Shown one piece after another: positions 33,108-46,131 of a DNA stretch of 64,000 bases. Both the position numbers and the translations under genes were made by a program. A model generated the notes under the pieces. It did no database searches, was not told where the DNA came from, and worked only from the letters and a program-made list of their open reading frames with translations. Within the stretch, counting starts at the first letter, position 1. Each line of letters opens with the position of its first letter. Location of the stretch: the NCBI GenBank assembly GCA_910588125.1, contig CAJUPI010000004.1:34591-98590 (forward strand), read 5' to 3'. Source of the stretch: an uncultured Lachnospiraceae bacterium (GTDB lineage: Bacteria; Bacillota; Clostridia; Lachnospirales; Lachnospiraceae).

Positions 33108-33142
33108 TTCTAATTAGAAATTCATTTACTTTCTATTTAGAA
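33108..33142. promoter_or_regulatory. Two palindromic operator-like sites (TTCTAATTAGAA at 33108-33119 and TTCTATTTAGAA at 33131-33142) in the xre/tad divergent promoter region
   Basis: The first site is a perfect 12-bp palindrome and the second differs at one position; 23-bp centre-to-centre spacing; the second abuts the extended -10. Confidence 0.4.
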
Positions 33143-33144
33143 AG

Positions 33145-33153
33145 TGATATAAT
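33145..33153 (+). promoter_or_regulatory. Extended -10 promoter element (TGaTATAAT) for the tad operon
   Basis: TG at 33145-33146 and TATAAT at 33148-33153, about 35 nt upstream of the cpaE/tadZ start; weak -35 TTTACT 18 bp upstream. Confidence 0.4.
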
Positions 33154-33187
33154 TTTTAAAATGTTATGTTGGATTGGGGGAGGCGGT

Positions 33188-34291
33188 ATGATGAAAAAGA
33201 AGATGATACTTGCGGATTGTGATGAGCGGTACATGAAAGAGCTTGCGTATTTTTTTATGGAGAGGGTTCCCCAACTGGAATTGGTTACGTTTACCAAGAA
33301 GGAGAAAATGTATCAGTATCTGGAACAGGGGAATGCTGTTGATATTTTGGTGGTTGACGAAATGCTCGCTGGGGAACGGTTAAAAGGGCTTACGCCGGAT
33401 GTGACAAGGATTGCCATGTCCGTGAGCATGTCTGGAATCGATGGGTTTGAAGTGATAAAGAAGTATCAGAAGATGGAAAATTTGTCAGATGCTATTTTGC
33501 TCAAATATGCAGAAGAAAAAGGTACATTGGAAACGGTTAAGGGAGATAATGACACGAAGATTGCTGCTTTTTTTAATCCGGCGGGAGGAACCGGCAAGAC
33601 GGCTTTGGCTTTGGCGCTGGCGACGGCAGGTGCCAGGGCAGGAATGCGTGTGCTGTATCTGAATCTGGAGGAAATTGATTCCACAGACGATGTTTTAGGT
33701 AAAACGGAGGGGACTCTTTCGGATGTATTTCTTGCTTTAAAAACAAAGGGCATGAATGCAGGAATTAAATTGAAAGCGAGTGCTGGTATGGAGGAAACGG
33801 CCGGATTTTATTATGTATCCGGGGTGGAAAGTATCTCTGAGTATGAAGAAATCACTGGCAAAGATTTGCAGAAGCTGCTTCGGGCGACGGCAGAGCTGGC
33901 TATTTATGATCTTGTGATTGTGGATCAGGCTTCTGGTTTTACAGAAAGGACCAAGGTGATATTAAAGGAGGCGGATACCATATTGGTGCCGGTTATTTTG
34001 GAAGAAGACAATATGGCGAAGTGGCAGCGGCTTTTGGGAGAAAGCAGGCTGCATGATTCTTATGACGGGCTTTTTCAAAAAATGAAAATGATTTTAAATA
34101 AAGCAGGGGCAGCAGGATGGGGGAACGAACCGTTTTTTAATGAGCTTTGCAGCAGAATGCCTTGTTGCGCCAGCATTCCGCTCACTGCTGTTTTAGCCAA
34201 AAGAAGCAGTATTCTGCATGCCGGGGATGCAACTTGGCAATTCATGAGGCCAATACTTCAGGTGGTGACAGGAAGGGAAATCAATGATTGA
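33188..34291 (+). CDS. tadZ: Tad pilus assembly protein TadZ/CpaE-like (N-terminal receiver-like domain plus ParA/MinD-type ATPase domain with deviant Walker A)
   Basis: GGGGGAGG RBS; FFNPAGGTGKTALALALA P-loop; synteny directly upstream of cpaF. Confidence 0.7.
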   Translation: MMKKKMILADCDERYMKELAYFFMERVPQLELVTFTKKEKMYQYLEQGNAVDILVVDEMLAGERLKGLTPDVTRIAMSVSMSGIDGFEVIKKYQKMENLSDAILLKYAEEKGTLETVKGDNDTKIAAFFNPAGGTGKTALALALATAGARAGMRVLYLNLEEIDSTDDVLGKTEGTLSDVFLALKTKGMNAGIKLKASAGMEETAGFYYVSGVESISEYEEITGKDLQKLLRATAELAIYDLVIVDQASGFTERTKVILKEADTILVPVILEEDNMAKWQRLLGESRLHDSYDGLFQKMKMILNKAGAAGWGNEPFFNELCSRMPCCASIPLTAVLAKRSSILHAGDATWQFMRPILQVVTGREIND

Positions 34292-35519
34292 AAATATGCA
34301 GGAGTACATAAAAAAGATTCGGGAAATGGTATCGGATCGCCTGGATCTGACAAGGAATGTGGAAGATGACGAGATCCGGGAAGTAATTGCCAACATTGTC
34401 ATGGAAGAATCCCGAAGGCAGTATCTGTCTCTCACAGAAAAGAGAGAAGTGATGGAAGGCGTTTTTAATTCCATGAGAGGGCTGGATGTGCTGCAGCCAC
34501 TGGTTGATGATCCGACTATCACGGAAATTATGATCAATGGGCCTCACCATGTATTTGTCGAGCAGGCGGGACGCCTGTATCAGAAGCATGTCAGTTTTGA
34601 AACCAATGAGAAGCTGGAAAATGTAATTTTAAATATTGTATCAAAAGTCAACCGGACAGTCAATGAGGCAAATCCGATTGTGGATGCCCGCCTTTTGGAT
34701 GGGTCACGGGTAAACGTGGTGCTCCCCCCGATTGCCCTGGACGGCCCGACGGTGACGATCCGGAAGTTTCCGGAGGATCCGATGACAGTCAAGAAGCTGA
34801 TCGCCTATGGCTCGATTACCCCGGAGGTGGCAGAGCTGCTGGAACGTATGGTAAAGGCAAAATACAATATTTTTATCAGTGGCGGAACCGGGTCCGGCAA
34901 GACGACTTTTTTAAATGCGATATCCAATTTTATACCGAGAGACGAACGGGTGATTACGATTGAGGACTCGGCAGAGCTTCAGATCAAGGGTGTGGACAAT
35001 TTAGTGCGCCTGGAGACGAGAAATGCCAATATGGAGGGCAAGGGAGAGGTGACGATCCGGGATTTGATTCGCTCTTCTCTGCGTATGAGGCCGGAACGGA
35101 TCGTGGTGGGCGAGGTGCGAGGTGCGGAGGCGCTGGATATGCTACAGGCGATGAATACCGGACATGACGGATCTTTGTCTACCGGGCATGCCAATTCAAC
35201 CAAGGATATGCTGAGCCGGTTAGAGACGATGGTGGTGTCCGGAAACAATATTCCGATTGAGGCGATCCGGCAGCAGATTGCTTCGGCAATTGATATCATT
35301 ATCCAGTTGTCCAGACTGCGGGATAAGTCTCGCCGGACGATTGAGATTACCGAGATGGTGGGATACGAGGACGGTAAGTTCCAGATGAATCCTCTTTATC
35401 GATTTGTGGAGAGAGGGGAGGATGAGAACGGGAGAGTAATCGGACAACTGACCCGGACGGAGCATGCTATGGTACATACAGAGAAATTTCGGAATGCCGG
35501 CTTGCCGGATCAGGTGTAG
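34284..35519 (+). CDS. cpaF: Tad pilus secretion ATPase CpaF/TadA (VirB11/GspE superfamily)
   Basis: Walker A ISGGTGSGKTTFLNA, Walker B / Asp box and His box (LDMLQAMNTGHDGSLSTGHANS). Confidence 0.9.
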   Translation: MIENMQEYIKKIREMVSDRLDLTRNVEDDEIREVIANIVMEESRRQYLSLTEKREVMEGVFNSMRGLDVLQPLVDDPTITEIMINGPHHVFVEQAGRLYQKHVSFETNEKLENVILNIVSKVNRTVNEANPIVDARLLDGSRVNVVLPPIALDGPTVTIRKFPEDPMTVKKLIAYGSITPEVAELLERMVKAKYNIFISGGTGSGKTTFLNAISNFIPRDERVITIEDSAELQIKGVDNLVRLETRNANMEGKGEVTIRDLIRSSLRMRPERIVVGEVRGAEALDMLQAMNTGHDGSLSTGHANSTKDMLSRLETMVVSGNNIPIEAIRQQIASAIDIIIQLSRLRDKSRRTIEITEMVGYEDGKFQMNPLYRFVERGEDENGRVIGQLTRTEHAMVHTEKFRNAGLPDQV

Positions 35520-35572
35520 GCAGGTATGGCGCGCTGATGGCATGTGAACGGTGAAAAGCAGGAGGGGAAGCT

Positions 35573-44718: not shown

Positions 44719-44736
44719 TGTGAGGTTGTACATCCA

Positions 44737-44796
44737 ATATCATTAAGTTAATTTTTCCATGGCTGAGCATTCTCAGAGATAAACGTAATGACATTG
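44737..44796. repeat. Intergenic motif family 2, copy 1 (ATATCATTAAGTT ... TCTCAGAGATAAACGTAATGACATTG) upstream of the PP2C gene
   Basis: Related copies at 50817-50859 and 52339-52366; followed by TATACT -10-like hexamer. Confidence 0.55.
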
Positions 44797-44837
44797 GGCG
44801 GTATACTAACTTGTCAGTACAGTGAGCAGAGGTGTTT

Positions 44838-45611
44838 ATGTATACATATACCTGTGGAATGGTCAGCGATAAAGGAGATGTCAGAACGGAAAACCAGGAC
44901 AGTATTCTGGCTCTTTGGGGGAAGGCAGAAGGGCGGAACACTGCGCTGTTTGTGGTGGCGGACGGCATGGGAGGACTTTCTTATGGAGCTAAGATAAGCC
45001 GTTATATTACAGAACAATTCCAGTATTGGTGGAGAGAAGAATTTCCGGCAATTATCCGGGAAAACATGGATCGGGAAGAAGATATCCGGGAGCTTTTAGA
45101 ACAGGAAATCTGGGATATTAATCAGAGTATCCTTGCGTTTAACAATCGAATGAGCTGCCGCTCTGGTTCTACCTTATCTCTTCTTTTGCTTTATGAAGAC
45201 CGGTATTATATTGAAAATATCGGTGACAGCCGTGTCTATTTGATGCGGGATCAAAGCTTATATCAGGTGACGCAGGATCAGTCGGTGGCAGCTCAGCTCG
45301 TAAGACAGCATCGTATGACAGAAGAAGAGGCGCAGCATTCTACTATGAAAAATAAGCTGACCATGTGTATGGGAATGTTTGCCGTTCCTAAAAGCAATTA
45401 TTATGCCGGTAAGCTGTTTGCCGGAGATTGTTTTTTGATCTGCAGCGACGGTTTTTATCATCCGTTGAAAAAAGAACAGATGGAGAAAGTCTTGAGGGAG
45501 CCGGAATTGAATGCTAGGGAAAAGGCGGAGTATCTGCGTCATTTAATGGAGCCGGGAGCCGCCAGAGACAATGTTTCAGCGATCGTAGCAGAGATAGCGG
45601 GAAAGGAGTAA
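44838..45611 (+). CDS. PP2C-family Ser/Thr protein phosphatase
   Basis: N-terminal SDKGDVRTENQDS and metal-binding VVADGMGG motifs of PPM phosphatases. Confidence 0.8.
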   Translation: MYTYTCGMVSDKGDVRTENQDSILALWGKAEGRNTALFVVADGMGGLSYGAKISRYITEQFQYWWREEFPAIIRENMDREEDIRELLEQEIWDINQSILAFNNRMSCRSGSTLSLLLLYEDRYYIENIGDSRVYLMRDQSLYQVTQDQSVAAQLVRQHRMTEEEAQHSTMKNKLTMCMGMFAVPKSNYYAGKLFAGDCFLICSDGFYHPLKKEQMEKVLREPELNAREKAEYLRHLMEPGAARDNVSAIVAEIAGKE

Positions 45612-45615
45612 CAAG

Positions 45616-46131
45616 ATGGCAGTACATGTTCCTGTATGGTATCTGTCAGCCGTTCTGGTGGCAGGATGGGGGGCTGTCACGGATCTGCGCCATCATAAAA
45701 TCTACAATAAACTGACAATATCTGCAATGATTGCCGGGATTCTTTTCCATGTATGCTTTTACGGTATCCGTGGCTGTCAAAGCAGCCTGTTGGGGATTCT
45801 GCCGGGAATGGCATGTATCTTGTTTTGGCTGTCAGGGATGTTGAAAGCCGGCGATATCAAGCTCTATATGGCAGTAGGAGCATTAGCCGGGTGGCGGTTT
45901 TGCGGGTATACAATAGTTTCTTCTGTTCTGATCGGCGGAGTGATGGCTGCGGTTCTGATGGTGGTAAGGAAAAACGGCCGTGTTGCCGGCAGGCGGCTGT
46001 GGATATATCTGATGAATCTGATTTACACCAGACAATTTCATCGCTATCGTCCGGAGGAACCGAAGTCATATTTCAGCTTTGGATGCTGCATTTTTGCCGG
46101 GACGTTGGTGGCTTTGTGGAAGTTATATTAA
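45616..46131 (+). CDS. Second A24-family prepilin peptidase paralog (short form)
   Basis: 171 aa polytopic; Asp contexts AVTDLRHHKIYN and KAGDIKLYMAVGA resemble TadV/CpaA. Confidence 0.7.
   Translation: MAVHVPVWYLSAVLVAGWGAVTDLRHHKIYNKLTISAMIAGILFHVCFYGIRGCQSSLLGILPGMACILFWLSGMLKAGDIKLYMAVGALAGWRFCGYTIVSSVLIGGVMAAVLMVVRKNGRVAGRRLWIYLMNLIYTRQFHRYRPEEPKSYFSFGCCIFAGTLVALWKLY

Follow-up and report, generated by a model that had tools for sequence, protein, structure and literature searches.

A Tad pilus locus of a Lachnospiraceae bacterium with a putative phosphorylation switch and a degenerate CdiA-CT-type domain on a minor pilin

Introduction

What does a Lachnospiraceae bacterium do with a complete Tad (type IVc) pilus locus whose operon also holds an FHA-domain protein, a PP2C phosphatase and a second prepilin peptidase? 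The locus in question lies on contig CAJUPI010000004.1 (assembly GCA_910588125.1) of an uncultured Lachnospiraceae bacterium, in a stretch of 64,000 nucleotides (nt), hereafter the window, to whose numbering all positions refer. Its core is an ordinary monoderm Tad locus of a known kind, since clostridial tad operons, with Flp-like pilins lacking Tyr at +6, were catalogued in 2011 (Imam et al., PMC3244431). Apparently undescribed are the conserved presence of a kinase/PPM/DUF6382-FHA cassette in such operons, the paired peptidases, the TadG-like protein with DUF5702 and a TadE protein bearing a dead CdiA-CT fold. With moderate confidence, we read the locus as encoding a monoderm Tad pilus that is governed by a threonine (Thr) phosphorylation switch and displays the dead module at its tip. 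The functional statements made below rest on sequence, predicted structure and gene neighborhood. Lachnospiraceae are dominant gut commensals whose surface organelles are almost unstudied, and a conserved Tad pilus under kinase/phosphatase/FHA control would be a concrete system for attachment decisions in gut anaerobes.

Organization of the Locus and Core Machinery

The proteins of the locus were scanned with Pfam and NCBIfam. Twelve intact, closely packed open reading frames (ORFs) of the plus strand occupy positions 33161-46131, with spacings of -8 to 213 nt between neighbors and in the order TadZ, CpaF, TadB, TadC, Flp, TadE1, TadG-like, TadE2, A24a, FHA, PP2C, A24b; an ORF of 1409 amino acids (aa) follows (Table 1). 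Every gene named in the preliminary description of this DNA was recovered as an intact plus-strand ORF where that description had placed it, and running each ORF against profile hidden Markov models (HMMs) gave a family-level match for every core gene. Position 33108, from which the locus had been said to start, matches no ORF boundary. The likely true starts of TadZ and TadE2 are 33188, preceded by a GGAGG ribosome-binding site, and 41087, respectively. NCBIfam offered no named family for seven of the first ten proteins.

Concerning the assembly machinery, TadZ matches the Pfam families AAA_31, CbiA, MipZ and, weakly, TadZ-like_ARD. Residues 2-305, with both domains, align to the TadZ crystal structure from Eubacterium rectale (3fkq_A, E-value = 3.6e-22), which agrees with the receiver-like N-terminal domain previously assigned to the protein. 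The best NCBIfam match of CpaF is the TadA family (303.7 bits, under the equivalog cut-off of 373); the protein is without an FHA fusion and is 79-94% identical to its counterparts in relatives. TadB and TadC are separate adjacent T2SSF proteins, each over the gathering score. No secretin family matched any window ORF of at least 120 aa in the Pfam scan. The earlier statement that rcpA is missing was thus borne out, and its absence is expected in monoderm Tad systems (Denise et al., PMC6668835).

The 61-aa prepilin Flp, preceded by a GGGAGG ribosome-binding site, scores 56 bits on PF16982 (cut-off 33.5). The cleavage motif expected of it is present (predicted site EEDG/MGTVEL, with Glu at +5 and Leu, not Tyr, at +6), while the family proposed for its identification, PF04964, did not match. 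Its G-1/E+5 motif is invariant in 20 loci, and every related locus keeps the class III signal motifs in Flp as well as in TadE1 and TadE2. TadE1 (predicted cleavage NAG/YLTIE) has a conserved class III motif and one N-terminal hydrophobic segment. For the two proteins described as TadE-like pseudopilins, signal motifs and gene positions agree with that assignment, although the PF07811 matches (E-value = 4e-4 and 0.02) stay below the cut-off. Unlike Flp, TadE1 and TadE2, the TadG-like protein lacks Glu at +5 (N-terminus KG/AISVF); its PF13400 N-terminus is marginal and DUF5702 occupies its C-terminal half. An AlphaFold2 (AF2) model built with 40 homologs is largely helical (predicted local distance difference test, pLDDT, 82.5; predicted template modelling score, pTM, 0.70) and comprises an N-terminal pilin-like helix, a helical stalk at about 177-403 and a mixed C-terminal domain that corresponds to DUF5702. 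Foldseek found no PDB match to it with an E-value <0.1; the coiled-coil and alpha-pore-toxin-like matches considered as structural relatives were insignificant (E-value at least 0.2) and were discarded.

Table 1. Positions and supporting matches of the genes and other elements of the Tad locus and its borders.
Feature	Position	Strand	Basis
XRE/Cro-type helix-turn-helix (HTH) regulator	32618-32944	-	Pfam HTH_26 6e-15; divergent from operon
Terminator-like hairpin	32646-32665		After upstream SPFH gene, before tadZ
Sigma-70-like promoter match	33125-33153	+	TTTACT-17-TATAAT, extended TG; consensus scan, pattern match only
TadZ/CpaE-like ParA-type ATPase	33161-34291	+	N-terminal atypical receiver domain
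CpaF/TadA hexameric motor ATPase	34284-35519	+	T2SSE 3e-62
TadB platform protein	35573-36367	+	T2SSF 25.4 bits (cut-off 25.2); syntenic in all loci
TadC platform protein	36417-37352	+	T2SSF 44 bits; syntenic
Flp-like major prepilin, 61 aa	37440-37625	+	PF16982 Flp1_like 2.4e-15
TadE-like minor pilin 1 (TadE1)	37838-38518	+	PF07811 4e-4, just under cut-off
TadG-like large minor pilin, 842 aa, DUF5702	38546-41074	+	PF13400 22.8 bits (cut-off 22.3); DUF5702 2e-35
TadE-like minor pilin 2 (TadE2), 372 aa	41081-42199	+	KG/VLSIE; weak TadE N-terminus and PF21111
C-terminal CdiA-CT (EC869/TA271-type) PD-(D/E)xK module of TadE2	41783-42196	+	PF21111 3e-10
TadV-type prepilin peptidase A24a, 207 aa	42216-42839	+	PF01478
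DUF6382-transmembrane-FHA protein	42874-44718	+	DUF6382 1.6e-28; FHA 1e-15
PPM/PP2C Ser/Thr phosphatase	44832-45611	+	PP2C_2 3.6e-10
Second, shorter prepilin peptidase A24b, 171 aa	45616-46131	+	PF01478 1.2e-12
Secreted surface protein, 1409 aa	46261-50490	+	Signal peptide, acidic repeats, He_PIG Ig-like 3.8e-9

The CdiA-CT-Type Module of TadE2

Sequence analysis also led to a CdiA-CT EC869-like domain (PF21111) on TadE2, which the preliminary description had overlooked. The C-terminal 130 aa of the protein have fold and family in common with the Zn-dependent DNases CdiA-CT EC869(o11)/TA271 and that of Yersinia YPIII (4g6u, 4zqu). Specifically, a profile of 30 TadE2 homologs retrieved 4zqu_A (3e-7) and 4g6u_A (3e-6) from the PDB. 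The module is modelled confidently by AF2 (residues 240-372, pLDDT 75-95), and Foldseek returned 4zqu and 4g6u with it as well (E-value = 1.3e-6 and 1.6e-6), so that two independent methods give the same fold. In the TadE2 family, the PF21111 module is present in more than 85 clusters and lacking from about 30 clusters of 225-240 aa. The short homologs stop exactly at the start of the linker, and the module is, on sequence grounds, a discrete add-on; loci L020-L023 and L025-L027, which are otherwise identical, also lack it.

The catalytic residues of the CdiA-CT DNase are Glu177, Asp198, Ser209 and Lys211 (PMC9086364). The last three form a D-x10-S-x-K motif in the toxin, which aligns to Ser270/Ala281/Ala283 in TadE2, whereas residues R249, G250, D286 and Y292 outside this triad are kept family-wide. 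A search of 1.84 billion cluster representatives gave 292 relatives of the module, of which the best 150 were tallied (141 alignable) for the D/S/K residues only, with proteins classed as pilin-type when they carry a genuine class III signal peptide. The triad was retained in 80 of the 98 non-pilin representatives and in none of the 43 that are fused to a pilin (Fisher p = 4e-22, uncorrected for phylogeny). Some non-pilin members of these best 150 are Rhs-like or very long proteins that carry the domain at their extreme C-terminus, and the non-pilin exceptions to the triad are mostly fragments of pilin-type proteins. No immunity-type ORF follows tadE2, as the A24 peptidase gene begins 16 nt downstream with no ORF between them. 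An active nuclease toxin on TadE2 was therefore rejected on account of the replaced triad, here and in all pilin-fused copies tallied.

Taken together, the module is predicted to be a domesticated, catalytically inactive toxin fold. It departs from the CdiA-CT DNases in its replaced Asp198/Ser209/Lys211, in having no immunity gene and in its carrier, which is a pilin with a class III signal peptide and not CdiA, Rhs or another toxin protein. This would be a case of toxin-domain exaptation, in which the pilin-fused copies (among the best 150 of 292) are without the triad and the toxin copies mostly retain it. Modular pilins function as adhesins (PMC8179133), and for Tad pili generally it has been proposed that TadE, TadF and TadG form tip complexes and bear modular C-terminal domains (PMC12075869); by analogy, the module probably offers a binding surface at the tip of the pilus. 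Compared with PilB and PilC of Streptococcus sanguinis, TadE2 is a Tad-class pilin outside the IPR012902-based survey (PMC8179133), and in place of a vWA or lectin domain it carries a degenerate toxin fold.

Peptidases, FHA Protein, Phosphatase and the Absent Kinase

The two prepilin peptidases show only marginal mutual similarity, and both catalytic Asp are present in each: conservation is at least 95% for Asp84 and G141-x-G143-D144 among 27 orthologs of A24a, and likewise for Asp23 and G79-D80-x-K82 among 21 orthologs of A24b. In the phosphatase, the metal-binding motifs D23, DGxG, GDSR, DG and DN are conserved to at least 95% in 25 orthologs. The DUF6382-FHA protein has DUF6382 at the N-terminus, a hairpin of two transmembrane segments (296-317 and 323-343, by hydropathy), a low-complexity linker rich in Lys, Pro and Gln and, at the C-terminus, the FHA domain; both globular domains, DUF6382 and FHA, are predicted to be cytoplasmic. 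Alignment of 13 homologs showed G537, R538, H556, S573 and N575 of the FHA domain to be conserved. A homolog search with the DUF6382 domain alone retrieved six fragments only and was uninformative. As a separate observation, Thr500 (consensus ETELW) is the sole invariant Thr in the otherwise unalignable linker. This candidate phospho-acceptor precedes the FHA domain by about 35 residues and is kept even where overall identity falls to 21%.

A membrane Hanks-type Ser/Thr kinase is encoded in 18 of the 22 informative related loci, either directly after A24b or between PP2C and A24b. It is built of an N-terminal Pkinase domain, a predicted transmembrane segment and a large C-terminal domain with a weak PQQ/beta-propeller match (proteins of 960-980 aa) or TPR repeats (719 aa); examples are found at L003 14931-17873, L021 14161-16320 and in 16 other related loci. 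At the corresponding place of our locus, there is only a spacer of 129 nt (46132-46260) between A24b and the surface-protein gene. A kinase elsewhere in the window was considered and discarded, as tblastn of the 64 kb gave no match. The gene is also missing from the two closest relatives (L001, L002) and from the lineages L012 and L019. As the distant loci have the kinase, the simplest view is that this lineage has lost it, and the full ancestral module, as reconstructed from these sequences, includes a membrane Ser/Thr kinase.

Concerning the giant surface protein, its homologs flank about 13 related loci, mostly directly after the kinase gene, and in many loci they follow the kinase immediately. 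From this recurrent adjacency we infer that it belongs to the system. Its C-terminal repeats of the cell-wall-binding (choline-binding) type are sub-threshold in Pfam; such repeats score strongly in the surface protein neighboring the L019 locus. The N-terminal part of about 200 residues consists of the signal peptide and then degenerate acidic EETASEE..E(I/V)S repeats.

Distribution, Synteny and Strain-Level Variation

The preliminary description had regarded the FHA protein, the PP2C phosphatase, the second A24 peptidase and the adjacent surface protein as atypical additions. The first three are indeed additional genes, and the surface protein adjoins the locus, but these three genes are not atypical for this lineage, because they are strictly syntenic in about 20 species and recur in more distant Tad loci, and should rather be seen as integral and conserved. 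As to the comparison of sibling genomes suggested earlier as a check, tblastn with the proteins of the window as queries recovered the same twelve-gene order in about 20 Lachnospiraceae species. Protein identities across these syntenic loci range from 94% (CpaF) down to about 40% (A24a, FHA), and three distant loci (24-30% identity) still retain A24, FHA and PP2C; at such divergences, synonymous sites are saturated. A genome scan with the TadE2 family yielded 27 loci, and those identified below order level are all from Lachnospiraceae; the hosts are mouse, human, rabbit and chicken gut, and the closest relative is bacterium D16-56. Cultured carriers include, apart from D16-56, Otoolea muris DSM 111138, Ventrimonas faecis CLA-AP-H27 and Lachnoclostridium sp. 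An14. In the L019 locus, an inserted Macro-domain gene (14378-14857) separates PP2C from A24b.

When metagenomes were scanned with the family of the FHA protein, DUF6382-FHA genes were met inside Tad loci of more distant lineages, with CpaF 46-62% identical. Two metagenome contigs (L041 5591-12223 and L039 5910-12319) carry, in this order, a gene for a 1250-aa GGDEF-STAND-TPR protein, a DUF6382-FHA gene and a gene for an A24 prepilin peptidase, with no Tad core genes within 10 kb. 

The flanks of the locus differ among species, and the SPFH and WYL genes of the window are not syntenic in relatives, which fits the mobility known for tad loci (PMC6668835). A mobile island was considered in view of the species-specific flanks and the PDDEXK_2 gene downstream, but no integrase or repeats were found. 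Strain-level variation was met in L028 (GCA_949878685.1, contig CATLBL010000065.1), a contig of a metagenome-assembled genome (MAG) that is 99.8% identical to window positions 35103-51080. Left of 35103, in the Walker-B region of cpaF, its positions 1-4633 hold unrelated AT-rich DNA with DUF6262, DUF2971 and Peptidase_M73 genes. This break is either the insertion of a mobile element that inactivates the pilus or an assembly chimera. A split cluster in close relatives, together with a lack of pili or transcripts, had been named beforehand as an observation that would refute the pilus reading; the break in cpaF of L028 may be one such split, and it does not outweigh the conservation of the locus across species.

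Comparison with Known Systems

Compared with the canonical Tad/Flp pili of Aggregatibacter actinomycetemcomitans, Caulobacter crescentus and Pseudomonas aeruginosa, the locus shares TadZ, a single CpaF/TadA ATPase, paired TadB/TadC, a small Flp that has G-1/E+5, predicted pseudopilins of the TadE/TadF type, a large protein resembling TadG and a short peptidase of the TadV type. It differs from them in the absence of the RcpA secretin, RcpB, RcpC and TadD, as expected for a monoderm, in its Flp (PF16982 and not PF04964, no Tyr at +6), in having two peptidases, in a TadG-like protein with DUF5702 instead of the domain usual in TadG, and in the FHA and PP2C genes, plus the kinase in relatives, within the operon. 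Gram-positive tad operons were catalogued again in 2019 (Denise et al., PMC6668835), and both catalogues (PMC3244431, PMC6668835) agree with our locus in the Clostridia host, the Flp-like pilin without Tyr at +6 and the missing secretin. Those passages of the two that a term search brought up contain no mention of an FHA/PP2C/kinase cassette, a second peptidase or a modular TadE, and a search for FHA in PMC3244431 gave no occurrence. In view of these two catalogues and of the Lachnospiraceae TadZ structure (3fkq), the previous wording that such loci are "essentially uncharacterized" was too strong. No functional study of Lachnospiraceae Tad pili was found in the open-access literature searched.

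The closest counterpart of the cassette comes from type VII secretion systems (T7SS). The only open-access paper found that mentions DUF6382 is a survey of T7SS variants, in which TseJ, TsfJ and TsjJ (DUF6382-FHA), TsxF (PPM phosphatase) and TsxD (membrane kinase) are components of T7SSe/f/j (PMC11217815). TsfJ, with DUF6382, two transmembrane helices, FHA and both domains cytoplasmic, has the same architecture as the FHA protein of our locus; the likeness between TsxD/TsxF/TsxJ and the Tad-locus cassette is one of described architecture. T7SSf contains an ATPase with a TadZ receiver domain and has no linked kinase (PMC11217815), a trait it shares with the window, whereas the Tad loci of relatives mostly have one. 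In contrast to T7SSe/f/j, the cassette studied here lies inside a Tad operon that has neither an EssC/FtsK-type ATPase nor a WXG100 gene, and its kinase is missing. Authors of the T7SS survey liken the cassette to the kinase/FHA control of type VI secretion (PMC11217815), where PpkA, PppA and Fha1 provide a membrane Hanks-type kinase, a PP2C phosphatase and an FHA protein within the operon of an envelope nanomachine, as in the Tad loci of relatives. The Tad-derived Kil system of Myxococcus, which is FHA-rich (PMC8460266) and has modular minor-pilin tips, also resembles the locus. Unlike the type VI secretion system (T6SS) and Kil, our locus is from a monoderm, has DUF6382 as partner of the FHA domain, includes no T6SS or T3SS* components and has a CpaF that is not fused to FHA. 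By linking Tad pili and T7SS variants, the DUF6382-FHA/PPM/kinase cassette suggests a common regulatory logic in Bacillota.

Proposed Mechanism and Alternative Explanations

On the pilus that we propose, the A24 peptidases would mature Flp, TadE1 and TadE2, and A24a and A24b may split the processing of major and minor pilins between them. TadE1, the TadG-like/DUF5702 protein and TadE2 would prime assembly and occupy the filament tip, where the helical DUF5702 stalk and the dead module of CdiA-CT type would lie exposed and could bind ligands. Such a pilus may serve attachment or colonization, the role already suggested in the preliminary description, with a possible contribution of the giant protein anchored to the cell wall. 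The most economical model of control, by analogy with PpkA/PppA/Fha1 of type VI secretion and TsxD/TsxF/TsxJ of T7SSe/f/j, is a Thr-phosphorylation switch that the membrane DUF6382-FHA protein and an active PP2C would form on the cytoplasmic side of the pilus machine. It is supported by the DUF6382-FHA gene traveling with type IV filament genes, both in distant Tad loci and paired with A24 without a Tad core. In most relatives, the membrane Ser/Thr kinase of the locus, with its large ectodomain, would supply the input of the switch. Since the kinase gene is missing from the present locus, either a kinase whose gene lies elsewhere would have to give the input, or the switch would be locked in one state.

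Several observations weigh against this picture. The Ser of the SxxH motif, the canonical contact to phosphothreonine (pThr), is Gly553 in all 13 aligned FHA homologs, so that pThr binding is not assured, and no kinase was found by tblastn anywhere in the 64-kb window; both are real caveats to the switch model. The TadE and TadG proteins score at or under the Pfam gathering scores, the N-terminal pilin part of TadE2 is poorly modelled (pLDDT <60), the only tie of the surface protein to the pilus is adjacency, and the interrupted cpaF of the nearly identical L028 may indicate dispensability, if it is not a chimera.

A bolder version of the switched pilus would make it a distinct Tad subclass of gut Lachnospiraceae and related Clostridia, with a portable, post-translational kinase/PPM/DUF6382-FHA gate on assembly shared with T7SSe/f/j and a dead DNase-fold tip that binds a ligand, possibly DNA, the kinase being uncoupled here. 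If true, a single on-switch would be common to two unrelated envelope machines, Tad and T7SS, though we regard this version as rather unlikely.

Binding of DNA is taken further in the next alternative, which sees a DNA-binding or uptake pilus whose dead TadE2 nuclease fold would still bind nucleic acid and capture extracellular DNA (eDNA) for transformation or eDNA-mediated attachment. Tad/Flp pili are needed for natural transformation in Micrococcus luteus (PMC4322843) and have been proposed to import DNA in Liberibacter (PMC8513845), and the homology of the module to Zn-dependent DNases, with R249, G250, D286 and Y292 invariant outside the triad, would accord with such a function. However, the fold alone does not imply DNA binding, the scanned ORFs of locus and window include no comEA, comEC or dprA, and otherwise identical loci (L020-L023, L025-L027) do without the module; we consider this explanation improbable.

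Equally little weight is given to the view that the locus of this genome is a decaying or silent remnant. The input kinase is missing from the window and from L001 and L002 while 18 of 22 informative relatives have it, and the near-identical L028 breaks inside cpaF at 35103, beside the DUF6262 and DUF2971 genes. Nevertheless, none of the twelve ORFs is truncated, their catalytic and processing motifs are intact, and the L028 junction may be a chimera of MAG assembly. That the kinase-less lineages L012 and L019 also retain the whole locus speaks for its working without a kinase in cis. 

Finally, contact-dependent antagonism, in which a Kil-like or toxin-tipped pilus would deliver a nuclease under kinase/FHA control, is very improbable despite the enrichment of the Tad-like Kil killing system in FHA proteins (PMC8460266), its interchangeable minor-pilin tips (PMC12075869) and the membership of the module in a polymorphic-toxin family whose non-pilin members end Rhs-like or very long proteins, because the catalytic Asp/Ser/Lys are Ser/Ala/Ala in TadE2, pilin-fused copies among the best 150 of 292 never have the full triad that most non-pilin ones keep, the 16 nt after tadE2 leave no immunity-type ORF, and several relatives dispense with the module.

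The switched pilus with an inactive toxin fold at its tip is thus the reading that we retain, and the basic picture of the Tad locus is unchanged by these findings.

Upstream Region and Other Features of the Window

The divergent HTH regulator upstream of tadZ is kept only in the three closest loci (L001-L003, 77-82% identity); it is a candidate local regulator of the operon, and its membership in the system is uncertain. Control by a riboswitch or another regulatory RNA was rejected, as Rfam searches returned nothing at gathering level in the whole window and nothing with an E-value up to 1 over 32500-38000.

Elsewhere in the window, two adjoining ORFs of about 535 aa without Pfam match (5770-7386 and 7398-8996, plus strand) have an aminotransferase gene on one side and a Peptidase_S58 (DmpA) gene on the other, near a sigma-54 activator. 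A 172-aa protein (22890-23408, minus strand) consists of the Spo0A C-terminal DNA-binding domain only, with no receiver domain. On the same strand, a 356-aa ORF without Pfam match (28532-29602) overlaps the end of a 449-aa WYL-domain protein (29535-30884), and the pair could be regulator and effector. Directly downstream of the surface-protein gene, a PD-(D/E)XK_2 (Rpn-like) transposase-family protein (50963-52270, plus strand) ends in a C-terminal run of QLEEQGI heptad repeats. The region 57516-63279 (plus strand) encodes two PrpD/MmgE paralogs, a split aconitase and a TctC-type tricarboxylate receptor, adjoined by a LysR regulator.

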